A DNA stretch of 59,767 nucleotides, counting the filler. It is 4 parts of 4 records of this genome, joined end to end, with 100 filler letters (N's around TTAATTAATTAA, not from the genome) between each part and the next. Parts side by side here need not be neighbours in the genome. Positions count along the whole stretch, not along the records: positions 43,637 to 59,767 come from DRR723986_12520; 3 more parts are not named here. One strand, given 5' to 3'. The position numbers and the translations under genes are program-made. The notes under the pieces are model-generated. The model was given only the letters and a program-made list of their open reading frames with translations, did not search any database and was not told the origin of the DNA. The stretch's first letter is position 1. Each line of letters opens with the position of its first letter. Shown here piece after piece: positions 12,577-59,767 of the stretch.

Positions 12577-12676
12577 NNNNNNNNNNNNNNNNNNNNNNNN
12601 NNNNNNNNNNNNNNNNNNNNTTAATTAATTAANNNNNNNNNNNNNNNNNNNNNNNNNNNNNNNNNNNNNNNNNNNN
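12577..12676. other. Artificial contig spacer (44N-TTAATTAATTAA-44N)
   Basis: Six-frame stop linker; GC drops abruptly across it. Confidence 0.99.
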
Positions 12677-12678
12677 CA

Positions 12679-37164: not shown

Positions 37165-37264
37165 NNNNNNNNNNNNNNNNNNNNNNNNNNNNNNNNNNNN
37201 NNNNNNNNTTAATTAATTAANNNNNNNNNNNNNNNNNNNNNNNNNNNNNNNNNNNNNNNNNNNN
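37165..37264. other. Artificial contig spacer
   Basis: 44N-TTAATTAATTAA-44N; GC jumps across it. Confidence 0.99.
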
Positions 37265-37265
37265 G

Positions 37266-43536: not shown

Positions 43537-43636
43537 NNNNNNNNNNNNNNNNNNNNNNNNNNNNNNNNNNNNNNNNNNNNTTAATTAATTAANNNNNNNN
43601 NNNNNNNNNNNNNNNNNNNNNNNNNNNNNNNNNNNN
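43537..43636. other. Artificial contig spacer
   Basis: 44N-TTAATTAATTAA-44N. Confidence 0.99.
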
Positions 43637-43637
43637 C

Positions 43638-43928
43638 GACGCCTTGCGATCCGAGAAAAGAGAGCTGGATCAAACCGTCGCGGATGCGCGCATTGCGGCT
43701 GCCCGAGAGGCAGCACGGGCCGGAACCCTAAGCGGCAGGTCTGATGCGATTGCGGCTGATATCGCGGCGAGCGAGGACAGGCTTGCGCAGCTGAAGCGCG
43801 ATATCGAAGAAACTCAAAAGAAACAGGATCTTGAACGCCAGGAACCTGAGGCCGGAACCGATCTGCCATCGCCGCCCCCTTCTGCGGACGCCGCAATCGA
43901 TCCTGCCGACATTCAGAACCAAGAGTGA
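43638..43928 (+). CDS. C-terminal fragment of a coiled-coil protein (5' truncated)
   Basis: Heptad-like charged helix (ELDQTVADARI...LAQLKRDIEETQKK) and a Pro-rich tail; stops 10 nt before the next ATG. Confidence 0.65.
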   Translation, partial: DALRSEKRELDQTVADARIAAAREAARAGTLSGRSDAIAADIAASEDRLAQLKRDIEETQKKQDLERQEPEAGTDLPSPPPSADAAIDPADIQNQE

Positions 43929-43938
43929 GTGACCATCA

Positions 43939-46191
43939 ATGTTGTCCAATCTGACCGCGATCGTGCTCGTGACGGCCTCTGCACTGGCTTTGCTCTCGAT
44001 CGTCCAATTGCTGCTGGCCGCCCGGAACGATCGCGTTGCGACGGCGGCGGGACCGATTGAGGATCTCGCCGTCTACGAACGGCGATTGCAGGAGAAGAAG
44101 GACGCGGTTGCGGATATCGAGAACGAACTCGAGCTGCGCCGAAAGGCTCTGGGGGACGTCGCCGGTATGCAGGCGGAGGTCGATGCCCTTGTGCGGCAGC
44201 GCGAAACCTTGCTCGCCGAACACGCGACGCTGGAGGAGCGCAAGGCAGAAGTGCTGGCCGTTCGGTCCGATATGGAAGCAGCCCAGATAGAGCGGCAGTC
44301 GCTCGAAGCCGAGTTGATCGAAAAGCGCGAAGAATACCTCGCGGTCAAGGACCGCCTGGAAAAGGCGGAACGGCTCGTGCATCAGATTTCTGCCCTTTCT
44401 GCCGAGAAGGCGGAATTGGATCGCGCCATCGATGACCTGCGCGATGAGGTGCGCCGCCTGCAGGATGCGGAGAAACGCGTGGCGGACCTGTCGCAGCGGG
44501 CGCTCGATCTGGAAGCCGACTTGGCGCGCAAGGCAGGGGCGCTTGCATCACGCGAGAGCGATCTGGCGGAGGTGAGCGAGCGCCTTTCGGCAGAGCGGTC
44601 ACGGATTGCCGAAAGCAGTGCCGCGCTTTCGCAGGTGCAGGCAGAGAAGGCCGCCGAAGATCAATCCCTGGCGCGATTGAAAAGCGAGGCGATCGAGGCG
44701 CAGGAACGCTGTGATGCCCTGCGAGCGGCAGTCGGTGCACGCGAAGCCGATGTTCGTCGCCTGGATACGCAGATTCAGGAGCGGAATGGCAAGGTCACGT
44801 CTCTGGCTGCCGACATCGAGGCCCAGAAAGCGCTCAAGGTCGATCTCGAGGATGAGCTGACATCCTTGCGCATCGAAGTCGCCTCCGCCGAAGAGGCCTT
44901 TGCGGAACGGAACGGCGAACTGGATGCGATGGCAGATCGCCGGGTTCGGATGGAGGCCAAGCTTGCAAACTTGCAAGCGGCCATCGAACAGAGCCAGGGG
45001 GCCGCGGCGGGCGGTGGCACATCGACCGTCGATCCGTTGAAGGAACTGAAGGAGCGCCCGCCGGTCATCGTGCAGTTGGAGAACCTCGACGCACCGGGGC
45101 AGATCTACGAAGGCGAGGCGATCCACAACGTGGAAAAACGCCTGCAAGCCTTCGGACTGGATTACCATCCGCGTGTGATCCGGGCCTTCCATACGGCCAT
45201 GAAGGTCAACGAGAGCACGCAGATGGCGGTGCTCGCCGGGATTTCCGGCACGGGCAAGAGCCAGCTGCCCCGGCAATACGCCAGCGCCATGGGGATCGGG
45301 TTCCTCCAGGTGCCGGTGCAGCCGCGATGGGACAGCCCGCAGGACCTCATGGGCTTCTACAACTACATCGAGGGCAAGTTCCGCCCGACCGACATGGCGC
45401 GTGCTCTCTGGGCGCTGGACGGGCACAACAACGTGGACGCAGTCGAAGACCGGATGATGATGGTGCTGCTCGACGAGATGAACCTCGCGCGGGTCGAATA
45501 CTACTTCTCCGATTTCCTCAGCCGCTTGGAAAGCCGACCGTCGCGGGATCGAACGGACGACAAGGGGCTGCGCAAGGACGCGGAGATCGAGCTCGAAATC
45601 CCGAAGCTTGCGCAGCCGCCGCGCATCTTCCCGGGATACAACCTGCTGTTTGCTGGCACGATGAACGAGGATGAAAGCACGCAATCGCTGTCGGACAAGG
45701 TCGTGGACCGCGCCAACATCCTGCGGTTTGCAGCGCCGAAGAAGATCCAGGCGGGGGCACGGCAAGGCGATGTTCCGGAGGTGCGTGCCCTGTCGCAGGG
45801 CAAATGGCAGTCTTGGGTGAAGCCGGTCTCGTCGGTCGCGGGCAACGAGATGGTGACCGCCAGCGTGGAACGCATGGTGGACTTGATGCGCAGCTTCGGC
45901 AGGCCTTTCGGTCACCGCCTTGGCCGTGCGATCATGGATTACGTCGCGAATTATCCCGAGGCCGACGGTGTGGACCGCATCCGCGCAGGCCTGGCCGATC
46001 AGGTCGAAATGCGCCTTCTGCCCAAGCTGCGCGGGGTCGAGGTCGATGACATGGAGCATGTCTTTGGCGAGTTGACGGCTTTTGTCGAGAATGACCTGGG
46101 TGACGCGGTCCTGGCAGATGCCATTCGGGCGTCGAAGGATGCGGCAGAGGCTTCGACCGGGCAGTTCGTCTGGAACGGGGTGACGCGCTGA
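43939..46191 (+). CDS. Membrane-anchored coiled-coil McrB-like AAA+ GTPase (NxD type)
   Basis: N-terminal hydrophobic helix, about 310 aa coiled coil, Walker A GISGTGKS, VQPRWDSPQDLMGFYN, Walker B LLDEMNLARVEYYFSDFLS, GTMNEDE, LSDKVVDRA. Confidence 0.85.
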   Translation: MLSNLTAIVLVTASALALLSIVQLLLAARNDRVATAAGPIEDLAVYERRLQEKKDAVADIENELELRRKALGDVAGMQAEVDALVRQRETLLAEHATLEERKAEVLAVRSDMEAAQIERQSLEAELIEKREEYLAVKDRLEKAERLVHQISALSAEKAELDRAIDDLRDEVRRLQDAEKRVADLSQRALDLEADLARKAGALASRESDLAEVSERLSAERSRIAESSAALSQVQAEKAAEDQSLARLKSEAIEAQERCDALRAAVGAREADVRRLDTQIQERNGKVTSLAADIEAQKALKVDLEDELTSLRIEVASAEEAFAERNGELDAMADRRVRMEAKLANLQAAIEQSQGAAAGGGTSTVDPLKELKERPPVIVQLENLDAPGQIYEGEAIHNVEKRLQAFGLDYHPRVIRAFHTAMKVNESTQMAVLAGISGTGKSQLPRQYASAMGIGFLQVPVQPRWDSPQDLMGFYNYIEGKFRPTDMARALWALDGHNNVDAVEDRMMMVLLDEMNLARVEYYFSDFLSRLESRPSRDRTDDKGLRKDAEIELEIPKLAQPPRIFPGYNLLFAGTMNEDESTQSLSDKVVDRANILRFAAPKKIQAGARQGDVPEVRALSQGKWQSWVKPVSSVAGNEMVTASVERMVDLMRSFGRPFGHRLGRAIMDYVANYPEADGVDRIRAGLADQVEMRLLPKLRGVEVDDMEHVFGELTAFVENDLGDAVLADAIRASKDAAEASTGQFVWNGVTR

Positions 46192-47702
46192 TGCCGCGAT
46201 TGCCGCGTCCCTGGTCCGGACAGTTCGGGGACGATGCCGCCGCCTTCGGGCCCGGTGACTGCCTCCTGAGCGAGGGAGATCTGCCCGGGCGCGAGGAAAA
46301 GGTCCTGCTCATGCCGGGGGAGGTCCGAGGCGTGAACCGGGCGCTGTGGTTGCACCCCTATCCTCGCAAGGGCGCGGCAGGTTCGCCAGAGCGGTCGGGC
46401 TTTCCGATCCGACCGAAGATCGGGACGGAGCCGCAGAACGGCGAGGATACGCTGCCCTTCGATACCCTGCGCCGGATGAACGAAGTCATGGCGCGTCTAC
46501 AGGAACTCGAAGAGGCGCTGGACGATCCGGCGAATGTCTGGTCGCGCCTGCGCGCGGCATGGAAGCGTGCCGAGAACGAGGAAGACCCGCGCATGGCCGA
46601 AATCGTGCGGCAGGCGCGCGACCTCGGCCCGGTGGCGCGCGATCTGGAAAAGCGGATCAGGCGGGTGCTGCGCAGGCAACGTGAGATGACGCCGTTGGAC
46701 CGTGTTCAAGAGATGGACCGCGCCTCGATGGTTTGGCTGAGCCGCCAGCCGGGACGTGGAATTGCCGAACGCGCGGGTGCAAGTCAGCGCATCCTGGCGA
46801 CGGTGCGGCGAGAGAATTTCGATACGCTGGAAAACCGCGTCCTGCGGGCATGGCTGGGGCTGGCAGAGGCGGTGGCGCGCGAATGGCTGCGCGAGCACGC
46901 GCGGGCGCGAGAAAGCGCTCGGTTCCGATCTGTCGAGGCGCTGCGGAAACTGTGCCGACGGATGAACGACGAACTGGACCAGCTGGGGGTCAATGTCGCA
47001 CAGCCGGGGATCACGCCGAACTACGTCCTTATGCAGGACCGCGGCTATCGGCGCATATACGACGCATGGCAACGCCTGTTGAAGCGCGACCAAGCTCTGG
47101 ATCAACTTTGGGCATGGCAGGCCCAGTCTTGGACGGATTTCGCGGTTCTCGCGATCGTCCTTGCGCTGGACGACTTGCCGGACGTCGAATTGATCGCGCA
47201 ATCGCCGATGCTGTGGAACTCGGAAGCCCGCGCCGGGCGCTGGTTCGACCAGGATCGACCCTTGGCCATCTTCTGGCTAAAACGCATCGGGCGTGTCGTC
47301 GAAGTTATGGCGCGACCGGAACAGCCCGGCACCATGCTGACCCTGGCGCGCGCGCATGTCGCGTTGCGGATATCTGATCCTGCCGGGGTCGAGATGGATC
47401 AGCGAATTCCGGTCTGGACGCCCCATGCGATGCTGCCTTTGGACATGGGGACGATTGCGCGTGACGCGATGGGCTGCCTTGCCCAGTTGCAGATCGCAAA
47501 ACGTCAATTGAGCGCGATGGACACGATTCACAGCGGTTTGGTTCTTGCGCCGACCCATGGCGATTCAGTGGCTGTGCGCAAATCCGATGGCCCGCTGACA
47601 GTCGATGCCATCAGCCTCGGCGCATCGGGCGAGGCGCTGGGGCAGGGCATCGCGTCGCTCAAGGCCTATGCCGAAAGCCAGTTCTCGGAGGTGCACGGAT
47701 GA
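46191..47702 (+). CDS. DUF2357 McrC-like protein, nuclease motif apparently degenerate
   Basis: DTLENRVL and PNYVLMQDRGYRRIY DUF2357 motifs; TGATG overlap with the GTPase; no PD...D/ExK seen. Confidence 0.75.
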   Translation: MPRLPRPWSGQFGDDAAAFGPGDCLLSEGDLPGREEKVLLMPGEVRGVNRALWLHPYPRKGAAGSPERSGFPIRPKIGTEPQNGEDTLPFDTLRRMNEVMARLQELEEALDDPANVWSRLRAAWKRAENEEDPRMAEIVRQARDLGPVARDLEKRIRRVLRRQREMTPLDRVQEMDRASMVWLSRQPGRGIAERAGASQRILATVRRENFDTLENRVLRAWLGLAEAVAREWLREHARARESARFRSVEALRKLCRRMNDELDQLGVNVAQPGITPNYVLMQDRGYRRIYDAWQRLLKRDQALDQLWAWQAQSWTDFAVLAIVLALDDLPDVELIAQSPMLWNSEARAGRWFDQDRPLAIFWLKRIGRVVEVMARPEQPGTMLTLARAHVALRISDPAGVEMDQRIPVWTPHAMLPLDMGTIARDAMGCLAQLQIAKRQLSAMDTIHSGLVLAPTHGDSVAVRKSDGPLTVDAISLGASGEALGQGIASLKAYAESQFSEVHG

Positions 47703-50029
47703 GCTTTACGAAGCTGTGCGGCTACGATGTGAACGGGTACCGCGACCTGGCCGCGCGAAACTGGGAAATCTCCGCCGACGGCGAAGAGCGCCAGAACATC
47801 CAGATCACGCACGGCGGGTTGCTGTCGTCTGTGGTGCGGGCCGGTACAGGGCCCGACATGCGCTGGATCGGCGGTGCGCAGGCAGCGCTTGCTCCGCACG
47901 GGCGCGGCGATGGCTGGGGAGAGATCGGCAAGGCAGGGCGCCGGTCCTTGACCCGCTGCCTGTTGACCGGAAGGAATGACGACGTGGAAGCGCTCGGCGC
48001 TGCCTTTTCCGGCTTGGTCACGGGTGCGCGGTATAACGTGATGGCCGTCGATGACGTCGGACGCGATGTCGAGGCCCAGCAGGAACGGGTCCTGCGTGCA
48101 GCGCAGAAGGCTCACCTGTCCAATCCGCTGCTCGTCTGGCGCAGCGTCCTTGCGGTTCTGTACCACGTTTCCCTTGGAACGCTTGCAGAGGGGCGGCGCG
48201 TGGGCATCATCAGCCATTGCGAAGACGGGCTCGCCGTACAACAGATGCGCATCCTGTCCCGTGACGGCGTGTTGGCGCCAGAGCGAAACCGACCCGCACG
48301 ATTGGTGCCCTCGGCCGCCGGGCTTGGTGAGCTTGTGATGGCGGCGCGCCACGTCATGCTGGGCGGCGAAAGGATATCGCAGGGCAATGCCCATCGTCCC
48401 CAGGCCAGAATGGTCGGGACGCTTGCCTTGGGGGAGCCGGTTTCGGCAGAACTGCTGCGGAACAACCGTGGCCGCTGGGATCTGATCGAGCCTATGACCA
48501 TGACGCTGCCAGTCCGCGATTTCGAGCGCGAAGACTTGGCCAGCCTGAGGGATTGTGACGTCGTGCTCTTCGAAACCGTCGCAACCGGTGTCGTCGCGGA
48601 CACGGTGGCCGGTTGGTGTGCCGCGATGCTGGCTCGTGACGTAGCGCGGTTGCCGCAGGAGGCCGTTGCACGCGGTGCGCTCGAAGCGGCGCGACGCATC
48701 CAGAGGCGCGAACCCGTCTACTTCGACTTCCTGCCGCAGATTTCGACCATCGTTCAGACGGGCAGCAAGGCTGGCAATTACGACTTGATCCGTGCGGGCG
48801 ATACGGTCGAGGCAGGCCGCCTCTATCGCAGTCCGGAACCGGCGCAGATGGCCATCCCGGCGCGGCAGAACGCAATATCGGTCTACCTGCGCAAGGAGAT
48901 GATTGCCCAACCGCGCCGCGCCACGGTCGAGATCGGCGCCCCCTTGCAGGCCGCCGCGCCGGTGGACTTGCTCGTCGAGCAAAAGCCGGTCTCCGGCCGG
49001 GCCCGCATCCTGATGGAAGCGCGGTCCATAGGACGGCAATTTACCGTCGATTGGGACGAGGCCGAAGTCGTCGACACGGATTGGGACACCCTGATCGCGT
49101 CGCTCGAAGCGCCCCGACCTTCGGTCCCCGACAGGCTGGTTCTCGGGGCGGCGCTGGATGCCTGGCAGACCGGGATGACCGAACTTCTGGAGGAGAACGC
49201 GGACCGGAGCGATGTGGACTGGACGGCTCTCGCCCAGAAGATGCGATCGGGGGTCAATCAGAGCTATTGCGTGTCGAGCGATGGCGAACTGCCACCCGGC
49301 CTGTCGCGCCTCGACATCGAACGCCTGGACAGGCTGACGGAGCGTGCCCTCGTAGAGACCGAGGAGCGCGTCGCCGGGCGCAGGCGGGGCGACAACGATG
49401 CGCTGGCGTTTCTGACCTGGCAGTTCCGCCGCTGTCCAAGGCAGTTGCTCCCGATGTTGATGGACTGCCTGACTGGAAACGGGGACCATCCGTTCGTCTG
49501 GAGGCCGATGAACTGGGTCCTGATCTATCAGGGCTTGGCCCGCATCGTTTCCGATCCTGACGACGAGGCGCGTTTGCTCCGTCACATCCTGCAGTCGCCA
49601 ATCGGTGAATCCGAATGGCGTACGAAAACCGCCTGCATCGCCATGGTCCTTTCGCGCTCGGAAACGGCGCCGCATTCATTGGTGCGCGAGGATATCGACG
49701 TGCTGGCGCGTCGTGCGATCTTCGAATTCGGCGAGGTGGTTGGAGATGGATATACCCGTTTCCTCTACGCACGTTTCCTGTTGGGCGGGCTGCTGCGGTG
49801 GAGAGCCGTCGATCCCTATGCCTTGGTTCCGGGCTACGACCCGCTTGGCGAGCGCCTTGTTCACTCGATCGAGGCCATCCTCGCGGACTTCGACCTACGG
49901 GCCAGAAGGCACCGAGAAGTGGCAACTGCAGAACGGCGGCTTCGACCGACCTTCGAGGGCCTCCTGTCGGAACTCAAGGGGGACGGCGGCAGCCCGGATC
50001 TGCTGTTGAACATCTACCAAAGCAGTTGA
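47699..50029 (+). CDS. Divergent Hsp70/actin-fold protein with extra C-terminal helical domain
   Basis: CGYDVNG, RAAQKA..SNPLLVWRSVLAVL, EAVARGALEAA and YFDFLP..STI...LIRAG appear in Hsp70 order; ATGA overlap. Confidence 0.65.
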   Translation: MSFTKLCGYDVNGYRDLAARNWEISADGEERQNIQITHGGLLSSVVRAGTGPDMRWIGGAQAALAPHGRGDGWGEIGKAGRRSLTRCLLTGRNDDVEALGAAFSGLVTGARYNVMAVDDVGRDVEAQQERVLRAAQKAHLSNPLLVWRSVLAVLYHVSLGTLAEGRRVGIISHCEDGLAVQQMRILSRDGVLAPERNRPARLVPSAAGLGELVMAARHVMLGGERISQGNAHRPQARMVGTLALGEPVSAELLRNNRGRWDLIEPMTMTLPVRDFEREDLASLRDCDVVLFETVATGVVADTVAGWCAAMLARDVARLPQEAVARGALEAARRIQRREPVYFDFLPQISTIVQTGSKAGNYDLIRAGDTVEAGRLYRSPEPAQMAIPARQNAISVYLRKEMIAQPRRATVEIGAPLQAAAPVDLLVEQKPVSGRARILMEARSIGRQFTVDWDEAEVVDTDWDTLIASLEAPRPSVPDRLVLGAALDAWQTGMTELLEENADRSDVDWTALAQKMRSGVNQSYCVSSDGELPPGLSRLDIERLDRLTERALVETEERVAGRRRGDNDALAFLTWQFRRCPRQLLPMLMDCLTGNGDHPFVWRPMNWVLIYQGLARIVSDPDDEARLLRHILQSPIGESEWRTKTACIAMVLSRSETAPHSLVREDIDVLARRAIFEFGEVVGDGYTRFLYARFLLGGLLRWRAVDPYALVPGYDPLGERLVHSIEAILADFDLRARRHREVATAERRLRPTFEGLLSELKGDGGSPDLLLNIYQSS

Positions 50030-50489
50030 CGGCAGAACGGGTAGGTCCGCTCCGATACCCAGCATTCGAGAGCCCGAGCCCCTGCATCGTTCGTGAAGCA
50101 GAAATTGGGTTATGGACCTGAAAGAAGCGCGCAGCCATCCGACACTTCTTCCGGGATAGGTGCGCTGTCTCGGGTCGAACTCTGCCCATTGATCGCGCTC
50201 CTCGAGCACGCCGAGGGGATTTTCCTTCTCAGGGCGCCGCGGCCGGGATCGTTGCGAAGCCCGGGCCTTTGTCCCGGCCTCGTCGGCGCCGAATATCCAG
50301 CCTTCGTCGCGGGCGGTCATGGTTTCGGAGCCTGGCGCGGGTGGCATGACGGTCGCGTCGAGCAGGCGGGACCTTCTGCAGTGAGCTGCCCCAGCAGGGA
50401 TTGGAAGATGCGCAGCCTTTCGAGACTGACCTCGGGCGTCTCTTCGCCTGAGCCGTCGATGCCGATCTGGCGGTGGGGGCGTGGCGGGC

Positions 50490-53400
50490 TCATGGGGAGA
50501 TGCCAGCGATGGCGGGCCATTCCGGCAATGCCGCCAGCGCGTTGACGAGGCGCATCTGCTCGACCGTTTCGCAGCGGGTGTCGGGTAGGCGGGGGCTGGA
50601 AAAGACCAGTGCCAAGGCCTTGGCGCGCGACACCGCGACGTTCAGGCGGTTGCGCGACAGGAGGAACTCGAGGCCACGCGGGATATCCTCGGCGCTCGAT
50701 GCGGTCATCGAGACGAGGCAGACCGGGGCCTCCTGGCCCTGGAACTTGTCGACCGTGCCGACACGGACGCTCGCGGGCAGCGCGTCGCGCAGGGCGTTGA
50801 CCTGGGCGTTGTAGGGCGCAACGACGATGATGTCCTGTTCGCGCAGCGGGCGGGCGGGGCCGTCGTGCCATTGCCCTGCAAGCAAGCGCGCGACGGCGGC
50901 GAGTATGGCTTCGGTTTCCTCCGGCGCGGTCTGGGCATTGCCGGTGTGCGGGACTTCGACGCGGAAGGCGCCGGCCACGGGCAGACCGGGCGCGGTGATC
51001 CTGCGGGCGGCGGCGGTGTCATGGGCGGTGAGCTGGCCGTCGTAGAACCGATCCGAGACATAGGCACAGACATCGGGATGCATTCGGCGCGAGACGGGCA
51101 GGAAGATCCCGCGATCCGGTGCGACCGTGATGGCCTCGCCGAGCAGCCATTCGAGGCAGCTGAGGTTCGCCGGGTCGGGATGCGCGCCCTGTATCACCTG
51201 GGGCAGCTGGTTCGGGTCGCCGACGAGCACGATGTTATGGGCACAGCGCGCCATGGCGATGAGGTTGGCGAGACTGACCTGACCGGCCTCGTCCACCACC
51301 AGCGTATCGAACGCGGTTTCGAATTCGGGCCGGGAAAACAGGAACGCCGTTCCGCCGACGATATCGGAGGTAAACAGCTCGTCGTCCTGGTTGGTCTCGG
51401 CCACAGTGACGGGGCAGTCCTCGGGGTAACCGTGGTCGCGCCCGGTCTTGTGCACCATCGTCACCGTGTCGTCGATCTCCAGCGCGGCGACGCAACCCAT
51501 CATCAGGTTGCGCACGGCCTCATGGCTGTTGGAACTGACGGCAACGCGGCGCCCCTGGCGGACAAGGGCGAGGATCGCGCGCGCGGTGACATGCGTCTTG
51601 CCGGTGCCGGGTGGGCCTTGAATGGGCAGCACTGTGGCATCCATGGCAAGCACGGCGTCGCGCACGGCGGTCACAGGATCGTCGCGGGGGATGTCCTGCA
51701 GTGCCGTGCCGGTCAGGCGTGGCGGGGTCCGCGACAGCAGGTCGGTGATAGCGCGGTTGGCCTTTGTGCCGCATTGGTCGGCGATCACGGAGCGCAGGCT
51801 TTCGGCGATGACCGTGGTATTCAGCGGCCAGTCCGGCCCAAGATTCAGCCGGTCCGCCAGAAGGTCCGCCTTGGCCGCGCCGATCTTCAGCGTCAGGCGA
51901 CGGGCTCGGCGGTCCAGCGCGGTCAGGCTTGCCTTGGCGGGCGCGCCGTCCGGATCGGAGATCGTGACTTGGGCGCCTTCGCGGAGCTTCGTCTCTTGCT
52001 GCGGGTAGGTGTAATCGCGTTCGAAGGACCGTTTGACCGGGCGCGACGGGCCAAGCGCCGTCAGAAGGCCAAGCGCGTCAAGGTCGTCGAGCAGGTCCTC
52101 GCCTTCCTTCGCTGCCGTGTCGAAGACGGCCCATTGCGCCGGTTTTTGTTCGCGGGCGTGAAACAGCCCGAGGTCGGTCAGCATCGCGGCATCCGAGTGG
52201 CCCCCGGTCAACGCTTCCAACGCTCGGCGGTTCGGGTCGGGCAGTTCAGGCTCGGGTGCGGGCGTCCGCGGGCCGGTATATGTCCGCGGCGTGATCGTCA
52301 TCAACCAGTCGCGCAGCTCCTGTGTCGAGATGCAGTCGATGCGGTTGTACTCCTCGATCTCGTCCAGGATGGCTTGCTCGCCGCTTTCCAGCCAGCGTTC
52401 ATAGGCGACGATGGAGCCGCCCGCCGTCGTCACCTCGCCGTCGCGGGTGCGACCGTAGAAGGCCTCCATCGACTTGATGGAATAGTTCGGTTCCGACGCG
52501 ATCAACCCGCCGCGCACCACGGCATAGAGGTCGACGAAGCGCCCTTCGCGCAGGCAGAGATCGATGAATTCCTCTCCCACGCCGTATTTCGTGGTCAGCC
52601 GTTTCAGGGCGGTGATCTCGTAGGGCGCGTAGTGGTAGATATGCGCCATGGGACGCGCGTCGCGCGCTGCGCGGAAGCTATCCAGAAGGCGTTCCAGCGC
52701 GCGTTTCTCGGCGGCGTGGTCATGCGCCCAGAGAGCGGTGAAACCATCGGCGGACCACAGCCCGTGCAGATATTCGAGGCCGCCGGGCACATGCGGATCG
52801 CCCTCGATGTCGTAGAAGATGTCGCCCGGGTCCGGCTCCGGCAAGAGGTCGAAGCCACGCCCGGGTTCGGGGTCGCGCAACTCAAAGGACGGCATGCCGG
52901 TCCGTCGTGCAGTCTGCAGGCGAGCCTGTGTCGTCAGCCGGGCCAGCGTCGGCGCGGCGATGCGACGGACCGCTGCGGTGTTCGTCGCCAGTGCCGCCAT
53001 GGTGGTGATGCCCTGCGCCTCCAGCTTGGCCACCTGGCCCCGGGTGATGCCCGCGACGCGGTAGAGACTGTCCTCGGCCGCCCACTGGCGCTGGCAGTGA
53101 TCCGACCAACGGCAAAGCGAACAATCGGCGCAGGGCGCCGGGCGGGTCTGTTCCGGGGCGTCGAGGAAGGATTCCAGTCGCTTGCGGGCGCGCCGGGCAT
53201 AGGCGGTGTAATCGGCAAGGCGCAGGGAGGCACGCTCTCCGCTGCCGAGTTCGACATGGGCGCGTTCGGGCGGGGCGCCCTGCACGTCGGCCAACAGGTC
53301 CGAGTAGAGCACCAGTTGTAGCACGTGCTTCGGCGAGACGCGGCGCTTCAGCTTCGTGTCCGTGACCTCATAGCTGAAGGGGCCGAGGTTCGACGGCGTC

Positions 53401-53750
53401 TCGACCCGTTCGAGGAAATCCGACCAACCGCCCCAACGCCCCTGCGCCAGCGCGCCTTGGAAGACGACGGCGGGACCTTTCGCAAGGACAGAGCGCGTGT
53501 CCTGCGCGTTTTCCCAAAGGTCGCCGCGCTCGATCTCGACTACGTCGCCCGTGGCCTTCAACTCGGCGAGGTGAGCCGCCTCATGGGCATCGCCCTGTTT
53601 CTGCAACAGGGCGGTGTCGTCAGAGGCGGCATTCGGCACCAGGTTTGCACCGTTCAGGTAATCGAGGTCCAGCCGCGTGGCATGGGCGCAGCCCATGAAA
53701 CGCATGAGGTCGGTCGCGGACAAGAGTAGCGTGTCACCGTGGCGCTTCAT
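50490..53750 (-). CDS. TM0106-family RecB/Cas4-like nuclease + RNase H-like domain + SF1 (DNA2/UPF1-like) helicase fusion
   Basis: SDFL...DTKL, Q...Y, C..C..C.W...C, FYDIEG, QGPPGTGKT, VDEAGQ, GDPNQL, TVDKFQGQE, RLNVAVSRA. Confidence 0.9.
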   Translation of the reverse strand: MKRHGDTLLLSATDLMRFMGCAHATRLDLDYLNGANLVPNAASDDTALLQKQGDAHEAAHLAELKATGDVVEIERGDLWENAQDTRSVLAKGPAVVFQGALAQGRWGGWSDFLERVETPSNLGPFSYEVTDTKLKRRVSPKHVLQLVLYSDLLADVQGAPPERAHVELGSGERASLRLADYTAYARRARKRLESFLDAPEQTRPAPCADCSLCRWSDHCQRQWAAEDSLYRVAGITRGQVAKLEAQGITTMAALATNTAAVRRIAAPTLARLTTQARLQTARRTGMPSFELRDPEPGRGFDLLPEPDPGDIFYDIEGDPHVPGGLEYLHGLWSADGFTALWAHDHAAEKRALERLLDSFRAARDARPMAHIYHYAPYEITALKRLTTKYGVGEEFIDLCLREGRFVDLYAVVRGGLIASEPNYSIKSMEAFYGRTRDGEVTTAGGSIVAYERWLESGEQAILDEIEEYNRIDCISTQELRDWLMTITPRTYTGPRTPAPEPELPDPNRRALEALTGGHSDAAMLTDLGLFHAREQKPAQWAVFDTAAKEGEDLLDDLDALGLLTALGPSRPVKRSFERDYTYPQQETKLREGAQVTISDPDGAPAKASLTALDRRARRLTLKIGAAKADLLADRLNLGPDWPLNTTVIAESLRSVIADQCGTKANRAITDLLSRTPPRLTGTALQDIPRDDPVTAVRDAVLAMDATVLPIQGPPGTGKTHVTARAILALVRQGRRVAVSSNSHEAVRNLMMGCVAALEIDDTVTMVHKTGRDHGYPEDCPVTVAETNQDDELFTSDIVGGTAFLFSRPEFETAFDTLVVDEAGQVSLANLIAMARCAHNIVLVGDPNQLPQVIQGAHPDPANLSCLEWLLGEAITVAPDRGIFLPVSRRMHPDVCAYVSDRFYDGQLTAHDTAAARRITAPGLPVAGAFRVEVPHTGNAQTAPEETEAILAAVARLLAGQWHDGPARPLREQDIIVVAPYNAQVNALRDALPASVRVGTVDKFQGQEAPVCLVSMTASSAEDIPRGLEFLLSRNRLNVAVSRAKALALVFSSPRLPDTRCETVEQMRLVNALAALPEWPAIAGISP

Positions 53751-53764
53751 GGGGGCCTTTTGGG

Positions 53765-54148
53765 TCAGGCGGCGTCGAGCGCGTCGAGGATCTTGTCCAA
53801 TTGCGCGAGGGACGCGAGATTGATGCAGACAAGGTCACCCTGGGCAAGCTGCAGCATTGGCTTCATGGCGGAATGGCGTCCGAACTTGGCTGCAGGGTCG
53901 CGATTTGCGGCGGACCGCTTGTAATCGAAGTCCTGCGACAAAAGGCCGGCGACCCGCTCCTCCAACAACCAGAGGTTCGGCGGGCTCAGATCATCCTTCT
54001 GGAACATGATCTCGGTCGTCTTTCCCGAGGCGCCCTTGAAGACATAGCGGCAGGCCTTCGATCCCTGGTGCCGCGCGGGATGTTCCTGGCAAACGGCATT
54101 CAAACGTTGGATGATGGCGGATTTCAGCTCGGCGCGGGGCGTGGGCAT
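53765..54148 (-). CDS. Hypothetical protein (127 aa), first gene of the TM0106 operon
   Basis: ATG 54148 after the purine-rich AGAAAGAA; ends 14 nt upstream of the TM0106 start; GRHSAMK motif. Confidence 0.65.
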   Translation of the reverse strand: MPTPRAELKSAIIQRLNAVCQEHPARHQGSKACRYVFKGASGKTTEIMFQKDDLSPPNLWLLEERVAGLLSQDFDYKRSAANRDPAAKFGRHSAMKPMLQLAQGDLVCINLASLAQLDKILDALDAA

Positions 54149-54201
54149 CTGGTTCTTTCTTTGTGACGGGCACCGACTCGCGTGTCGGCCTCTCGATTGA
54201 T

Positions 54202-54232
54202 TAACTACGTTGCAACCAGGACAAAAGCTGTC
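54202..54232 (-). promoter_or_regulatory. Candidate WYL-regulator site and promoter (copy 1)
   Basis: Minus strand GACAGCTTTTGTC-CTGG-TTGC-AACG-TAGTTA. Confidence 0.55.
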
Positions 54233-54244
54233 ATGCATGTCGCC

Positions 54245-55213
54245 ATGTCCTACGATAAAGCCGCTGAATTGCTGAGACTCGCCCGCCTGTGCGCCGCATC
54301 GCGGCAGGGGATCACCTTTGCGCAGGTGGCCGAGGAGTTCGGCATGAGCCAGCGCAATGCAAAACGCATGGTGGATCGGCTGTGCGACCTGTTCGAGGTC
54401 GAGCGGCTGGAGGATGCAGAGCGGCGCGCGCGGTTTCGCATCCGCGAGGCACGCGAGATGGCGCTTCCCGAGAAGCCTGACATCACACTCGAGGCACTGA
54501 AACTGGCGCTCCGCGGATTGGAGGAGGGCTCGGCCCATGCGGTGGCGCTTGCGGACCTGCGCAACGCGGTGCTGGCACGGTTGGAACCCAACCGTGCGCG
54601 CAAGGCGGAATTGGATGCCGAAACGGTGTTGCAGGCATACGGCCACGTCGCCAGCCCCGGGCCACGCGTGCGCATTGCGCCAGACGTGATCGAGAGCATC
54701 GGCGAGGCTTTGCGCGGACCGTTCCAGTTGCGGATCGCCTACGGGGACAAACCGCCGCGCGTGGTGGAACCCTACGGCATCCTGCGCGGCGTGCGCGGCT
54801 ACCTGGTGGCGAAACAGCGCGAGAAGGGGGAGTTGCCGATCAAGTTCCGGCTGGACCTGATCCGCGAGGCGGAGGTCCTGAACGAGAGCTTCCTGCTCGA
54901 CGAGGGTTTCGACATTGCGGATTTCGCGGCCGAGGGTTTTGGCGTCTGGCACGATCCGAAGGAATCGAAGGAGGTCGTCTGGCGGTTTGTTCCCGAGGTC
55001 GCGGAGCGCGCGGCGGAGTTCGTCTTTCATCCCGGCCAGAGCACGGAGAAGCTGGAGGATGGCAGTTTGCTGGTGCGTTTCACCGCCTCGGGTTGGACCG
55101 AGATGACATGGTATCTGTACAAGTGGGGCGACAAGGTCGAAGTGCTGGAGCCGCCGGAATTGCGCGCGAAGGTCGCAGGTTACCAACGCTCCGACTTCGA
55201 AGCGCTGCCCTGA
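54245..55213 (+). CDS. WYL-domain transcriptional regulator (HTH-WYL-WCX)
   Basis: N-terminal HTH (VAEEFGMSQRNAKR), R.VEPYGI..YLVA, FRLDLI, WCX FHPGQ...WGDKVEVLEPPELR. Confidence 0.9.
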   Translation: MSYDKAAELLRLARLCAASRQGITFAQVAEEFGMSQRNAKRMVDRLCDLFEVERLEDAERRARFRIREAREMALPEKPDITLEALKLALRGLEEGSAHAVALADLRNAVLARLEPNRARKAELDAETVLQAYGHVASPGPRVRIAPDVIESIGEALRGPFQLRIAYGDKPPRVVEPYGILRGVRGYLVAKQREKGELPIKFRLDLIREAEVLNESFLLDEGFDIADFAAEGFGVWHDPKESKEVVWRFVPEVAERAAEFVFHPGQSTEKLEDGSLLVRFTASGWTEMTWYLYKWGDKVEVLEPPELRAKVAGYQRSDFEALP

Positions 55214-56454
55214 GACACGGCCGAAAGGACGTGATCGGCGAGCGTCTGGGCGGCAGCGCGCGGGTCTTGCATCGGGACTTCCAACAGGGTGACGGGGTGG
55301 CCCTCGGAGGTATGCAGGCGGTCGATGCGGTGGTCCGGAGTGTCGGTGGGGTAGATCAGCATGACGCTATCCGCAGCCCATGCCGAGCGGTAGGCGAGCA
55401 TCTGGTAGACGTCGGATTGCGCCACGCCGCGTTTCGGGTCGGACGGGCCTTCGAGGCGTTTCCATTTCGTATCGAGGATGTGCACTTCGGCATCGCGCCT
55501 GAGGACGATGTCCGGGTACATGGCGAAGACCCCTGCGCCGTCTCGCCTCAGGGCATATTTGCCGCCAGCTTGGAGGGTGACCGTCCATCCCAAGGGCGAC
55601 AGGCGGCGCTGAAGGATCAGGCCGACCCAGGCCTCGAACAGCAAGTTCATGCGGAACAAGAGCGCGATGCCCTCGGTCCGGCCGGTCGACGTGGTCTGGA
55701 AGTGCCGGTCGAGGAAGAGTTTCGCGCGGCGGCACAGCGGCGCGAAGCGCTTGGTCTGGCGGTCGAAAGCCGGCAATTTCACCGGCCCGCGTGGCAGGGG
55801 CGATGCGCCGTCGAGATGCATCAGCGCTTCGGACAGCGCACGGCGGCTGCTATCGCGGCGGCTGAGGCGCAACAGCAGCACGGAGGCGGCGCGTAGCAGG
55901 CGGTTGACCGGCGTATCGGGCAACCGCTCGTCGAAGCGGCAGGCGAGCCTGTCCTGCCGTCCGGCGCGCAGCGAAAACTGCCGCACCACGTCGAGCGATC
56001 CACGCAGCGCCTTCAGGTCGTCGTTTTGCGCGTAATACTGCTGCGGGGTGCCGCGGCGCAGCTGCTCCAGCAAGTCGGCGGCAAAGCGTGAAATCAGCAG
56101 CTCGAGCAGGTCGAGGCGCTGCGCATCCATGGCGGAGAGGTCGAGGGACGACAGGTCGAACCCCTCGACCATGGACAACATGTGGATCAGCCCGGCGCGC
56201 GTCGCGCCGTTGTCGCGGTCGACCTTGGGCAGGATCTCGAGGTGCGTCGCCCCAGAGGCCAGCACGCCCACGACCTGCTGGGCGCGCAGCCGCTTGCGCC
56301 CGTCGAGGAGGATCTTCTCGCCGTCCTCCGTCGCGGTCTTCAGCCCGAGCGCGGGGGCGGCGCGGTCGGCCAGATCCAGCAGCGCGTCGGCCTGCGGACG
56401 GGTCAGCGCATCGCCAAGGTCGACGTATCCCCATTCCCGGACGGTCAGCGTCAC
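55180..56454 (-). CDS. mcrC: McrC family restriction nuclease subunit
   Basis: LEILPK, D.P.NRLL, LF.MN.LFE, YPDIV...ILDTKWK, SDVYQMLAY; GTGA overlap with mcrB. Confidence 0.9.
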   Translation of the reverse strand: MTLTVREWGYVDLGDALTRPQADALLDLADRAAPALGLKTATEDGEKILLDGRKRLRAQQVVGVLASGATHLEILPKVDRDNGATRAGLIHMLSMVEGFDLSSLDLSAMDAQRLDLLELLISRFAADLLEQLRRGTPQQYYAQNDDLKALRGSLDVVRQFSLRAGRQDRLACRFDERLPDTPVNRLLRAASVLLLRLSRRDSSRRALSEALMHLDGASPLPRGPVKLPAFDRQTKRFAPLCRRAKLFLDRHFQTTSTGRTEGIALLFRMNLLFEAWVGLILQRRLSPLGWTVTLQAGGKYALRRDGAGVFAMYPDIVLRRDAEVHILDTKWKRLEGPSDPKRGVAQSDVYQMLAYRSAWAADSVMLIYPTDTPDHRIDRLHTSEGHPVTLLEVPMQDPRAAAQTLADHVLSAVSQGSASKSERW

Positions 56455-58916
56455 GCTTGCAGGCCTGCGTAGGCCTCGGCAGGGAATTCGGTGCGGACCG
56501 TGTAGCGGATGCGGGTTTCATCGGCGTCCATACCGGGCGGCACGGGCAGCGGATCGCAGGCGATGAATCCTTGTTTGGCGCCGCCAAGGCAGGCCACGAC
56601 GCGGGACCAGTCCTCGTGAAAGTACTCCGCCAGAAGCGGCAGCACCTTTCGGCGCATGACGGCGTCGATGTCGGCGCGGCTCTGGCATCCCATGAAGAAG
56701 GCATGCCCGATCAAGTGATCGCGGTCGGCGAGGTATTCGATGCGCGCGTTGAGGAGGCTCAGCAGGGTCGAGAGGTCGATCCCGTCGATGGTGCCCAGCA
56801 GGGCGGGGCGCGGCGGCATCTCGACGAAATGGAAGCGGCGGCGCAGCGCGGTGTCCAAGAGCGCGATGGAACGGTCGGCGGTGTTCATCGTGTCGAGGAT
56901 GTGCAGGTTGGCGGGCAGGGTGAAATCATCGCCGGAATAGGGCAGTCGGACCGAGACGGCATTGGCGCGCCCGCCGCGTTTGTCCTCCTCGAGCAGGGTG
57001 ATGAGCTCGCCGAAGACCTTGGAGATGTTGGCGCGGTTGATCTCGTCGATGACGAGGACGAAGGGGCGCTCGGACGGCCCCCGGCGCGGCGCGATGAAGG
57101 CGGCGATGGCGTCGAGCTTCAGCTCGTCGTGCTTCAGCCGATGCAGGGAGGGCATGACGAATGCCCCGTTGGTGATCTGTGTCCTGGGCAGGGCCTCGCC
57201 ATGCCACAGCCAATCTACGCGGCGACCCTGCGGGTAGCCGTTGTCGCGCTCGACGAACTCGTAATCGCCGGTGATGCGTCCTATGGCCCGAAAGGATGAG
57301 TTGCCCTGCGAGATGACGACCATGTCACCCTTGTTCATCTCGTTGCGGAAACGGTGGATGAAATTGGCGTGGGACGACAGCTTTTCAGCGTTCGGGAAGC
57401 GGTTCTGGAGCTCGGACACGATCTCTGGTTTCGACGCAAATCGCGGATCGCTCCAATCGTGATCCATGCCCCAGCCCAGTAGGACCAGACCTTCCTCGAT
57501 GCAGTCCTCGTAGATGTGAGCGTCGCTGCTTTTCGATGCTTCACCAAGGCTCATCTTCCAGAAGCTGGTCTTCCCGAGCGCCTGCACGGTGCCCGCATCC
57601 GCGGGGGCGTCGGGGACGGAGGTGGCCAGCGACGCGATCTCGCGCAGGGCGCCATGGCGCGGGACGAGGCGGAAGCCTGCCTCGCCGTCGCCGCCTTCGG
57701 GGCGCAGGCCTTCGACGAATTCCTCGTAGCTGTAGCTTTGATGAAAGGTGACGAAGCCGATGCGACCCTGCTCGTGCAGCGTGCTGTAGCGGTCGCGCAG
57801 GGCTTCGGGGGACAGCGCCTCGGCGGCAGCGCGTCCGTCGCAGATCGCCACGGCTTCGCGGAAGGTGGCATAGGTCTTGCCGGTGCCGGGGGGGCCGTAG
57901 AGGATCGTGTTCAGGGTCTGCATGGATGTGTCCTTCACGGCGGTGACGGCAGTTGCAGGGGGTTGTTCGGGCGGCGTGTCGGGAAAGGCGGGCGCTGTGC
58001 CTGCCGTAACGAACAGCAGGCTTTGTACGTCGACCATGTCGCGCGGCGGATAGCCCGCATCGGTCAGCGACTGCGCCCAAAGCCGGGCGAGGCGCAGTTC
58101 CTGCGAGTAAGCCTCGGCGGCGGGCAGGCTGGGCAGGGGGGTAGCAAAGCTCTGGTACCAGGTGGTCTTCAGGATCTCGGCCTTGAAGAAGATCGCGTCG
58201 GTCGGGTTGCAAAGGAACAAGAGGTACTCAGCCACCTGCCGCGCCGTGTCTCGCGAGGCGTCGGGCGTCAGTGCCAGCCAGTCGTCCGCGAATGTCGCCA
58301 GCGCCGCCGGGTGCTCCGTCGGGCGGTCGCGCGTCTCCAGAAGCGCGGCGAATACGCGACCGTGGGCGGCGCGGTTTTCCGAGGGGGAAAACAGGTCCTT
58401 CAGCCGCCAGTTTAGCAGGTTGGTGGCCCGGGCCGCCTCGGCCACGGCGTCGAGCACGGCCTCGTCGTGCCGTGCCTGACCCAATGCGCGCCGCAGGGCA
58501 TCCCCGGCGGCGCGTTTGAAGTCGCGCTCCTCCTCGTCGAAACCCGCGTGGCCGAACCCGGTCCAGCCCGGGAATTTCTGCCGAACCTGCGCCAGTTTTC
58601 GACGCAAGGCAGCCTGTAGAGGGTCTTCGAAGAGCGCGGTGATCAGCACGAGGTCCGCTTCGCGGCGCAGGTCCAGCGAGGGAGGCAGCGTTTCGGGAAG
58701 GCGCGCGGACAGAGCTGCATCCGGGGTCAGCCGTTGTCGCGTCGTCATGCCGAAGTGCCATGCGAGGCTGTCGCCCGACGCGGTGGCAAGGGTCAGTCGG
58801 TCCCCCTCGCGGCCACGCGGCGAGACGCCATAGGCGGCCAATGCCTCGGCCATGGCGTGGCGCAGAGGCGTCATCCCATCCTCGGGGAAGGCCGTGCGCG
58901 CGTCGTGCCAGTCCAT
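56451..58916 (-). CDS. mcrB: McrB family GTPase with inserted EVE/PUA-like domain
   Basis: GPPGTGKT, FHQSYSYEEFVEG, IDEINRANISKVFGELITLLE, MNTADRS, ALRRRF. Confidence 0.9.
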   Translation of the reverse strand: MDWHDARTAFPEDGMTPLRHAMAEALAAYGVSPRGREGDRLTLATASGDSLAWHFGMTTRQRLTPDAALSARLPETLPPSLDLRREADLVLITALFEDPLQAALRRKLAQVRQKFPGWTGFGHAGFDEEERDFKRAAGDALRRALGQARHDEAVLDAVAEAARATNLLNWRLKDLFSPSENRAAHGRVFAALLETRDRPTEHPAALATFADDWLALTPDASRDTARQVAEYLLFLCNPTDAIFFKAEILKTTWYQSFATPLPSLPAAEAYSQELRLARLWAQSLTDAGYPPRDMVDVQSLLFVTAGTAPAFPDTPPEQPPATAVTAVKDTSMQTLNTILYGPPGTGKTYATFREAVAICDGRAAAEALSPEALRDRYSTLHEQGRIGFVTFHQSYSYEEFVEGLRPEGGDGEAGFRLVPRHGALREIASLATSVPDAPADAGTVQALGKTSFWKMSLGEASKSSDAHIYEDCIEEGLVLLGWGMDHDWSDPRFASKPEIVSELQNRFPNAEKLSSHANFIHRFRNEMNKGDMVVISQGNSSFRAIGRITGDYEFVERDNGYPQGRRVDWLWHGEALPRTQITNGAFVMPSLHRLKHDELKLDAIAAFIAPRRGPSERPFVLVIDEINRANISKVFGELITLLEEDKRGGRANAVSVRLPYSGDDFTLPANLHILDTMNTADRSIALLDTALRRRFHFVEMPPRPALLGTIDGIDLSTLLSLLNARIEYLADRDHLIGHAFFMGCQSRADIDAVMRRKVLPLLAEYFHEDWSRVVACLGGAKQGFIACDPLPVPPGMDADETRIRYTVRTEFPAEAYAGLQA

Positions 58917-58925
58917 CCTGTCTCC

Positions 58926-59642
58926 TTACCCGGCCAATGCCAGCACGTCTTCGCCCTGCCAGACCGCCCAGGCAACCGGATTCATCACCTCCGGCGACAG
59001 GAAGGTTCGGGCGTTGAAGGTGGGGATGTGGCGGTGCGCCTCGCTGCGGTAGGTCAGCGGCCAATGGGGCCCCACTTCGGAGGTCTTCTGCTGTCCGGCC
59101 CAGAGGCCGCTGTAGGTGGCGACGCGGTAGGCGCGGGCATCGTGGGCCACCAGGTCTGCCTCCGTCTGGGACCGAAGCAGCGCCTGCGCCTCGGCGTCGA
59201 TCTGGGCCAGCAGCCCGTCGAGCGCGCAGTCCGAGCGCTGCACCAGCCGCTCCACCGCATGCCAGCAGAATGTGACGCGGCTCATGGCGAAGTCGCCGCG
59301 TCCCTTGTGCCGCCGCATCGTGACGCGGGTATAGACCAACAGCGGCTCGCAGAAGGTCTCGCCCGCCTCGCCCACCAGCGTCACCATCCGGCGGGTGCGC
59401 AGCACACAGGCCAGCCCATCCTTCCAGCCGCCCACATGCACCACGCCTGGCAGCCGCAGCGCCCGCGCGGCAATTCGCTGGCGGTTTGTGCGGTTGGCGG
59501 TGAGGGGGGAGAGGGCCTCGATCAGGGGACACATGGCCCCGTCGTCCTCTCCCGCCGCCTCGAAGGCCTGGCGGGCAATGCCACGGGCCAGCGACTGGCG
59601 GATGTGATGCGGAGCGGCGCGATGCAGGCTGGCGACGGACAT
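58926..59642 (-). CDS. Hypothetical protein leading the mcrBC operon
   Basis: AAGGAG RBS; ends 9 nt before mcrB; HAVERLVQR motif. Confidence 0.7.
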   Translation of the reverse strand: MSVASLHRAAPHHIRQSLARGIARQAFEAAGEDDGAMCPLIEALSPLTANRTNRQRIAARALRLPGVVHVGGWKDGLACVLRTRRMVTLVGEAGETFCEPLLVYTRVTMRRHKGRGDFAMSRVTFCWHAVERLVQRSDCALDGLLAQIDAEAQALLRSQTEADLVAHDARAYRVATYSGLWAGQQKTSEVGPHWPLTYRSEAHRHIPTFNARTFLSPEVMNPVAWAVWQGEDVLALAG

Positions 59643-59672
59643 GGCAGAATCTCCTTCAGGGGTACGAAGAAA

Positions 59673-59703
59673 AGGTTAATCCGCAAGGGTGTCAAAACCT
59701 GTC
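59673..59703 (-). promoter_or_regulatory. Candidate WYL-regulator site and promoter (copy 2)
   Basis: Minus strand GACAGGTTTTGAC-ACCC-TTGC-GGAT-TAACCT. Confidence 0.55.
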
Positions 59704-59767
59704 CCCGTTGCGCATGGCCGTGAAATTCCCCACGGGCCCAAGGGCTTCGGGGCCTGGTCACGGCGGG

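Follow-up and report, generated by a model that had tools for sequence, protein, structure and literature searches.

The window considered here, a stretch of 59,767 bases, carries a gene for a helix-turn-helix (HTH) regulator with WYL and WCX domains that lies between two minus-strand operons, one encoding the protein p127 and a nuclease-helicase, the other encoding p238 and the McrB and McrC components of a type IV restriction system. With a probability of roughly 0.6, we favor the reading that this protein is a DriD-family WYL regulator which would bind a 21-base-pair (bp) site ahead of each operon and activate both operons upon encountering single-stranded DNA (ssDNA), with the binding, the activation and the signal all deduced from sequence comparisons. 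The protein encoded at 54245-55213 would act as a homodimer whose two winged-helix domains bind gggTGWC-N7-GWCAccc, once within the 96-nucleotide divergent region before p127 and the nuclease-helicase and once before p238-mcrB-mcrC. At both promoters the operator would cover the place of the -35 element and end 8 nucleotides before the -10, and polymerase would be recruited by the bound regulator, as at DriD and PafBC promoters. ssDNA arising from DNA damage or phage replication would fill the WYL/WCX pocket and bring about the DNA-binding form, and both operons would be switched on together. Activation is preferred mainly because this layout matches that of two experimentally characterized WYL activators.

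The regulator gene and the operator and promoter parts of the window are the following:

54245..55213, plus strand: HTH-WYL-WCX regulator of 322 amino acids (Pfam WCX 9.7e-16, WYL 3.4e-6), its start fixed by homology
54216..54236, minus strand: operator copy 1, GCATGACAGCTTTTGTCCTGG, a 21-bp pseudo-palindrome scoring 10.4 bits on the family matrix
54202..54207, minus strand: -10-like TAGTTA of the p127/nuclease-helicase promoter, beginning 8 nucleotides after operator copy 1
54206..54211, plus strand: putative -10, TACGTT, of the WYL gene's own predicted promoter, its TA common to the opposite -10
59687..59707, minus strand: operator copy 2, CGGGGACAGGTTTTGACACCC, with a right half equal to the consensus and a matrix score of 15.7 bits
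59673..59678, minus strand: -10 TAACCT (TAnnnT) of the p238-mcrBC promoter, 8 nucleotides after operator copy 2
59656-59650, minus strand: GAAGGAG, downstream of the p238-mcrBC -10 and followed by the ATG at 59642

Copy 2 is a good family site, and copy 1 keeps the core and the spacing while its right flank is degenerate: G4, C6, G14 and C16 are intact, and the right half is TGTCCTGG, as against TGWCACCC in the family. The matrix, 36 nucleotides long, was built on 60 unique sites, all taken from other genomes and none from the window. A scan of both strands of the 59,767 bases gave scores of at least 3 bits only at 59707-59672 (copy 2) and 54236-54201 (copy 1); when shuffles of 38001-59767 were scored, 19 of 20 stayed below 5 bits and one reached 10.6. 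A sigma-70 consensus scan of 43000-59767 returned 0 promoter-like sites and is uninformative for such non-canonical promoters.

The initial annotation had aligned two minus-strand elements, GACAGCTTTTGTC-CTGG-TTGC-AACG-TAGTTA at 54232-54202 and GACAGGTTTTGAC-ACCC-TTGC-GGAT-TAACCT at 59703-59673, and proposed that they form a promoter motif shared by both operons. Both elements are where it placed them, their 13-mers are identical at 11 of 13 positions, TTGC and TA fall at equal offsets, and copy 1 lies 12 nucleotides from the WYL ATG at 54245, which is the homology-supported start of the HTH-WYL-WCX gene. The parts of the element had to be redrawn. The palindrome given as GACA-N5-TGTC is in reality a 21-bp pseudo-palindrome, GGGTGWC-N7-GWCACCC, and the 13-mer of copy 2 has no palindromic symmetry. 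Conservation of TTGC is weak, at 0.4-0.7 bits per position, and, lying 4 nucleotides from the TA, this tetramer cannot serve as a -35. As to chance, mononucleotide shuffling of the two upstream regions (96 and 125 nucleotides) gave an 11/13 match in 25 of 500 trials and equalled the 17/31 identity of the full 31-nucleotide alignment in 225 of 500, and the degenerate 13-mer with up to two mismatches had 8 matches in the window against 4.06 expected. On these figures the pair of elements is only marginal when taken alone, a doubt that was removed by the comparison with related loci.

For this comparison, an alignment of 30 homologues of the regulator (to which residue counts out of 30 refer below) was used to scan 185,579 species genomes. 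At least 598 relatives were confirmed, and the best 80 of these, with 10-kb flanks, were studied as loci L001 onwards; they come from Rhodobacterales, Rhizobiales, Sphingomonadales and Caulobacterales. Since their WYL proteins are 48-65% identical to that of the window, the loci are not near-identical copies of one element. The sequence gggTGWCA-N5-TGWCAccc, followed after 8 nucleotides by TA in the orientation of the effector genes, was present by the WYL start in 76 of the 77 loci with at least 160 nucleotides upstream (L011, L023 and L024 lie too near a contig end), and copy 1 of the window occupies the homologous position. The exception was L004, where the element was not found beside the WYL start. 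Motif discovery upstream of the homologous operons therefore bore out that the motif travels with the WYL gene. Among unique primary sites, as we call those beside the WYL start, G4, C6, G14 and C16 were kept in 66/66 and the TA likewise in 66/66; the sites themselves lie 6-22 nucleotides from the WYL ATG. The inverted repeat is perfect over 8+8 bases in Rhizobium-type loci, and perfect symmetry was seen in L022, L051, L057, L070 and L074.

The presence of the motif at a second promoter recurs as well: in 29 of the 80 loci more than one site reaches 11 bits, which gives 30 extra sites. Most of these (24/30) follow the primary site at 190-500 nucleotides on its own strand, between a conserved gene of about 90 codons and the nuclease-helicase or its replacement. 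One precedes the p238 homologue, and with it the p238-mcrBC operon, of L001 (10344-10309, 19.5 bits); L001 is the closest relative and the only locus among the 80 with the architecture of the window. Two precede a Metallophos plus AAA_27 (SbcCD-like) pair in L013 and L053, and three are doubtful, being situated before a LysR gene, about 335 nucleotides before a CBASS operon, and on the other strand. The primary site of L001 scores 23.8 bits, and of the 76 primary sites only those of L022 (18.1) and L051 (23.2) score below it. The recognition helices are most divergent in the window (SQRNAKRMV) and L001 (VKRTALRMV) when compared with SHRTAQRMT; judged from these alignments, protein and site co-vary, with divergent recognition helices and low-scoring sites occurring together in the window and L001.

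The best solved relatives of the regulator are the DriD structures 9pfq and 8tp8 (E 1.5e-38 over residues 1-308 of 322), and the family profile matched DriD at 2.9e-89, PafBC at 3e-15, CapW at 0.004 and BrxR at 0.006 in the PDB. As to type, the regulator is a DriD homologue and not a BrxR or CapW homologue, and the placement of its site relative to the -10 agrees with known WYL activators. DriD of Caulobacter crescentus is a homodimeric activator built of a winged HTH, a three-helix bundle, WYL and WCX and triggered by ssDNA (PMC10853764; PMC13004042), which turns DNA binding on when it occupies the WYL/WCX pocket (PMC13004042). The window regulator shares its length (about 320-330 amino acids) and domain order and is similar to it over the full length, at about 36% identity as counted by eye. 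The sites resemble each other in being 21-bp pseudo-palindromes with an xGxC-N7-GxCx core and an AT-rich center, located near the start codon of the regulator in a bidirectional region. DriD recognizes ATACGAC-N7-GTCGTAT, of which G2, C4, G12 and C14 are conserved and read by Arg37 and Arg41 while Glu40 touches C1 (PMC10853764). With DriD numbering assigned to our alignment by inspection and checked at all residues that the DriD papers name, the base-reading arginines proved to be kept (R37 in 29/30, R41 in 30/30, both in the window). The families differ at residue 40, Glu in DriD but Gln in 24/30 of the relatives and Lys in the window, and at the operator base found there, which is C in DriD and T here (outer base pair C/G versus T/A).

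In the ssDNA pocket, Y166 (30/30), R172 (29/30), R184 (29/30), Y186 (30/30), R202 (29/30) and an aromatic residue at 235 (29/30) are conserved in the family. Set against DriD, 29-30 of 30 members retain the equivalents of Y168, R178, R189, Y192 and R207, and two further positions have conservative replacements, Phe for W206 and an aromatic residue for Y240 (29/30). The window regulator lacks the counterparts of DriD S172, R204 and R288. Given these residues, ssDNA sensing by the window regulator is plausible. In DriD, G18, A20, R120-R122, P125 and E128 contact the polymerase beta subunit and the C-terminal domain of the alpha subunit, and A20 needs a small side chain according to the DriD papers; among these contacts a small residue at 18 (28/30), Arg or Lys at R122 (28/30) and Glu or Asp at E128 (30/30) are retained. 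Unlike DriD, which serves a chromosome-wide damage regulon, the regulator described here would act on linked targets, the nuclease-helicase and mcrBC, and its activating role is deduced by analogy.

The geometry of the promoters points the same way. With the TA taken as the start of a -10 (site positions 29-34), the sequences at 16-18 nucleotides' spacing agree with TTGACA at 0.45-2.08 of 6 positions on average; a usable -35 is absent at normal spacing, and RNA polymerase therefore probably needs the bound regulator. The DriD promoter is alike in that the site covers the -35 position, stands at a fixed distance from the -10 and lacks a good -35. Its spacing was deduced from the oligonucleotides in the Methods of the DriD paper, where the 'optimised -35' version has TTGACA at site positions 6-11 and hence implies a -10 at 29-34. 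At secondary promoters, which are followed by unrelated genes, positions 29-34 read TAACCT (copy 2 of the window), TACCTT (L001), TAGACT (L053) and TACATC (L013), and A30 was kept in 26 of 28 secondary sites.

A comparable pattern is known from mycobacteria, where the PafBC-dependent promoter motif is tTGTCRgtg-8 nucleotides-TannnT (PMC5656591); the promoter-proximal half-site here, TTGWCAccc-8 nucleotides-TAnnnn, follows the same pattern and spacing. PafBC senses ssDNA through its WYL domain, and it is a heterodimer that uses one half-site at -26 and binds only together with RNA polymerase (PMC13004042). Similarity of the present regulator to PafBC is limited to WYL-WCX (E 3e-15). We rejected PafBC-style sigma adaptation as the exact mechanism, considering that the operator is two-sided, the protein is a single-gene DriD homologue and the spacing alone is common to both. 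For activation of defense genes by a WYL protein there is a precedent in DdaA of Moraxellaceae, which is described as a WYL activator of DNA-damage and anti-phage genes with the motif CGWCA-N5-TGWCG, a global regulator that replaces SOS and has sites before restriction-modification, CRISPR-Cas and Zorya genes (PMC12392091). Compared by motif, the present site, TGWCA-N5-TGWCA, differs only in the outermost base, and unlike the global DdaA the present regulator is physically linked to the genes it would serve, each locus having one to three sites.

Some conserved features belong to primary sites only, namely A25 (62/66 versus 6/27 of secondary sites) and TGTCGA at positions 48-53 (56/66 versus 1/27). 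Read on the WYL strand, these compose TCGACA-17 nucleotides-TAnnnT, a good sigma-70-type promoter whose predicted start is inside the operator, and we take it to be the putative promoter of the WYL gene itself, its -10 sharing the TA with the effector -10. The extra conservation of primary sites would then be due to this promoter; in the window, the corresponding -35 at 17-nucleotide spacing is weak. The shared TA suggests that the WYL and effector promoters exclude each other. Occupancy of the operator could also dampen transcription of the WYL gene, though the DriD precedent argues against autoregulation: from the equivalent site in the bidirectional driD promoter, DriD activates the divergent operon only and its own expression is unchanged (PMC13004042). 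Of the scheme put forward in the initial annotation, the core, one WYL regulator of activator type for two defense operons, thus holds at the strength given at the outset, whereas the autoregulation that it added is disfavored by that precedent.

The evidence is not all of one kind, and several points weigh against activation at both sites. Of 27 unique secondary sites, no more than 15 have the TA. Most -10 hexamers of the effector strand, such as TATTGA and TAGGAA, do not end in T, and the -10 of the WYL gene could by itself explain the invariant TA of the primary sites. Some DriD contacts to polymerase are lost, with A20 replaced by Arg in 21/30, R120 by Ala in 20/30 and P125 by Ala in 24/30; these contacts being only partly kept, the details of recruitment may differ. 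The mcrBC genes of L018, likewise placed beyond the WYL gene, have no site that reaches 4 bits. To these may be added that the defense-linked WYL regulators studied so far, BrxR and CapW, are repressors (PMC13004042), that TTGACA or TTGTCA at positions 12-17 of the operator matches a -35 at a mean of 5.62 of 6, and that copy 1 scores lower than all 76 other primary sites (minimum 18.1, median 45.8 bits), so that it may be a decaying site, one shuffle in 20 having reached 10.6 bits.

The same protein might occupy the same two sites as a repressor, occluding a promoter that uses the operator's TTGACA as its -35 and being released by ssDNA, which we regard as unlikely though still deserving serious attention. 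Besides the -35 match, it would account for the conservation of T12 (55/60), which the palindrome does not need, and a weak xAxxxT is found 18 nucleotides downstream in many nuclease-helicase-proximal sites (A37 22/28, T41 21/28); repression is also the mode of the characterized defense-associated WYL regulators, and ssDNA is reported to release CapW from DNA (PMC11662680). BrxR and CapW, which repress BREX and CBASS, share with the present regulator the HTH-WYL-WCX architecture, the position beside defense genes and the palindromic operators, but the profile match to them (0.004-0.006) covers the WYL domain only, and gene order and promoter layout differ. We rejected membership in the BrxR/CapW type on that match and on the lack of any -35 at canonical spacing from the TA; what the TTGACA inside the operator keeps possible is a repressor mechanism, not such membership. 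Against repression in general, the profile favors DriD, an activator whose DNA binding is turned on, not off, by ssDNA. In four independent secondary promoters, moreover, positions 36-41 are not -10-like (TTCTTC, AGGTTA, GGTCTC, AGGCGG) while positions 29-34 are TAnnnT or TAnnnC, and tTGTCR-...-8 nucleotides-TannnT is itself the motif of PafBC-activated promoters.

It is less probable still that copy 2 alone works, copy 1 having decayed and the nuclease-helicase operon having escaped control or depending on read-through or a basal promoter. The low score of copy 1 and its right flank, CCTGG instead of CACCC, would fit such decay, but G4, C6, G14 and C16 persist together with the TA at the fixed distance and at the exactly homologous position, and the recognition helix of the window protein is divergent, for which reason the family-wide matrix may under-score the preference of this particular protein. 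It appears very improbable that the two elements are alike by coincidence or as generic promoters lacking a regulator of their own: the shuffle figures for the window alone (11/13 in 5% of shuffles, the 31-nucleotide alignment not above chance) would allow it, but they are countered by the occurrence in 76/77 loci, the invariant core, the inverted-repeat symmetry, the recurring second copies and the lack of any other matrix match in 59.8 kb. On balance we retain activation by a DriD-like protein at both sites.

The genes served by the two sites in the window are:

53765..54148, minus strand: p127, the first gene after operator copy 1, with a homologue in L001 (58% identity)
50490..53750, minus strand: nuclease-helicase of 1086 amino acids, divergent from the WYL gene
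58926..59642, minus strand: p238, the first gene of the mcrBC operon, with 3 homologues found
56451..58916, minus strand: McrB-like AAA+ GTPase subunit of 821 amino acids (AAA_5 1.2e-12; NF008457 McrB 1.2e-31, below the curated cut-off)
55180..56454, minus strand: McrC of 424 amino acids (Pfam McrBC 4.3e-64)

The nuclease-helicase combines an N-terminal TM0106-type RecB-like nuclease (TIGR03491, 6e-75) and RNase_H_2 with a C-terminal UPF1/IGHMBP2-like superfamily 1 helicase. The second operon has the arrangement of McrBC type IV restriction, a gene for an McrB-like AAA+ GTPase followed with a 4-nucleotide overlap by a gene for McrC (DUF2357/PD-(D/E)xK), the NCBIfam scores of both proteins being below the equivalog cut-offs. 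p238-mcrB-mcrC converge on the 3' end of the WYL gene, and mcrC and the WYL gene overlap tail to tail by 34 nucleotides (55180-55213), an arrangement that looks similar in L001. Induced transcription of mcrBC would therefore run antisense into the regulator gene, which is possible as a form of feedback. For p127 and p238, searches of Pfam, PADLOC and NCBIfam gave no family and the atlas gave unnamed clusters only; an AlphaFold model of p238 from a 5-row alignment (predicted local distance difference test score 60.5) matched no PDB fold at E <= 0.001.

Across the 80 loci, a full-length nuclease-helicase divergent from the WYL gene was found in 60, a partial or other match in 8 and none in 6, with too little sequence in the remaining 6. 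McrBC is present in 28, in 24 of them directly after the nuclease-helicase on the same strand and in 2 directly after the WYL-proximal promoter; in L001 and L018 it is found beyond the WYL gene, the arrangement seen in the window. The window and L001 have mcrBC relocated in this way together with an operator copy dedicated to it. Loci in which the nuclease-helicase is missing or shortened have other defense-like cargo at the WYL-proximal promoter, for example a giant protein with a sacsin domain, a restriction endonuclease domain, a methyltransferase and PLD-helicase, a DUF6602 protein with a STAND-like ATPase, an SNF2 helicase or McrBC; in L076 this cargo consists of a helicase-Vsr fusion, a coiled-coil protein and, after these, homologues of the genes at 43939-50029 of the window. 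In L017, L039, L041 and L053 the first 140-390 residues of the nuclease-helicase remain and are followed by McrBC, a restriction endonuclease domain, or a methyltransferase and PLD-helicase, and such truncated genes joined to different cargo suggest that cargo is exchanged by recombination inside the gene.

Loci with a long gap between the promoter and the nuclease-helicase have, as the first gene after the WYL-proximal promoter, one for a familyless protein of about 87-97 amino acids (MSGRVIRIERxSSR...KHHAEHATYV...SLRIVR). It was seen between two operator copies in L003, L007, L009, L030, L034, L054, L060, L062, L065 and others; it is unrelated to p127, a comparison of p127 with the first gene of about 90 codons of other loci detecting no relation (E 1.4). 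A conserved leader, CTGCAA...GAGRCGATTCC...GGGTTGCG, lies about 15-50 nucleotides after the -10 and precedes the nuclease-helicase at primary and secondary promoters alike (e.g., L009 9470-9430). An Rfam scan of 43000-59767 at E <= 1 produced one sub-threshold chance match only; as the window's version of the leader gave nothing in it, the leader corresponds to no known RNA.

A second McrBC-like operon with coiled coils occupies 43939-50029 on the plus strand and encodes a 750-residue coiled-coil protein with AAA_5, a 503-residue DUF2357 protein and a 776-residue protein without a family. By description, it resembles the CoCoNuT class (eLife 2024). It is preceded by a cut coiled-coil open reading frame (43638-43928, plus strand), whose similarity to the coiled-coil protein of L076 was not significant (E 0.036); the homologues of the operon's genes in L076 (45-60% identity) stand downstream of the WYL-controlled promoter, after the helicase-Vsr fusion and the coiled-coil protein. 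The initial annotation had looked to the motif to mark the promoter of this operon, there called the NxD operon. No third site of at least 3 bits on the family matrix precedes 43939 in the window scan and the operon is cut by the contig end; the window consists of four contigs joined by linkers, for which reason the 'missing' promoter lies off the contig. GACGGCTTTTGTC at 46074-46086 (plus strand), one mismatch from the 13-mer, is inside the gene at 43939-46191 and 105 nucleotides before the next gene; scoring below 3 bits on the family matrix, it was rejected as a third site and is probably a chance match.

The linkers, each a run of N, TTAATTAATTAA and another run of N, are at 12578-12677, 37165-37265 and 43537-43637. 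Genes cut at the contig joins include the C-terminal halves of UvrB and FtsZ and a fragment of an aldehyde-oxidase/xanthine-dehydrogenase. The contig at 12678-37164, which has 30-35% G+C and housekeeping genes (grpE, dnaJ, sucC, PPK2 and a sigma-54 activator), looks like that of another organism than the contigs with 58-67% G+C, and the set may be a mixed bin. The regulator, its cargo and both sites are wholly within the fourth contig (43638-59767), which starts inside the open reading frame at 43638-43928 and ends 60 nucleotides upstream of copy 2.

How defense islands are regulated is poorly known. In the literature searched we found no prior description of a family that pairs a DriD-like regulator with nuclease-helicase and McrBC cargo. 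Activators of this kind, of the DriD and DdaA type, are known, and DdaA provides an earlier link between WYL activation and anti-phage genes. What the loci add is a large and clean family, with at least 598 relatives, in which a nuclease-helicase, often together with McrBC, comes wired to a probably activating DriD-like regulator. The arrangement of operator and promoter is legible in the sequence itself and yields precise predictions, and with T in the operator and Gln or Lys at residue 40, where DriD has C and Glu, the family offers a natural specificity variant for the study of how WYL proteins read DNA. More tentatively, the WYL gene, the operator and the back-to-back promoters may constitute a portable cassette for the ssDNA-inducible activation of toxic DNA-cutting defense genes, with the nuclease-helicase, McrBC, the CoCoNuT-like system, the SbcCD-like pair and others as cargo. 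The one TA shared by the divergent -10s would let polymerase load one way at a time, a switch between regulator and effector, and where the operon was split, as in the window and L001, the operator would have been copied along. If the cassette holds true, type IV restriction would for the first time be seen under the local control of an activator-type WYL protein. If activation by the DriD-like regulator is true, type IV restriction in these bacteria would be inducible by damage or infection and not constitutive.

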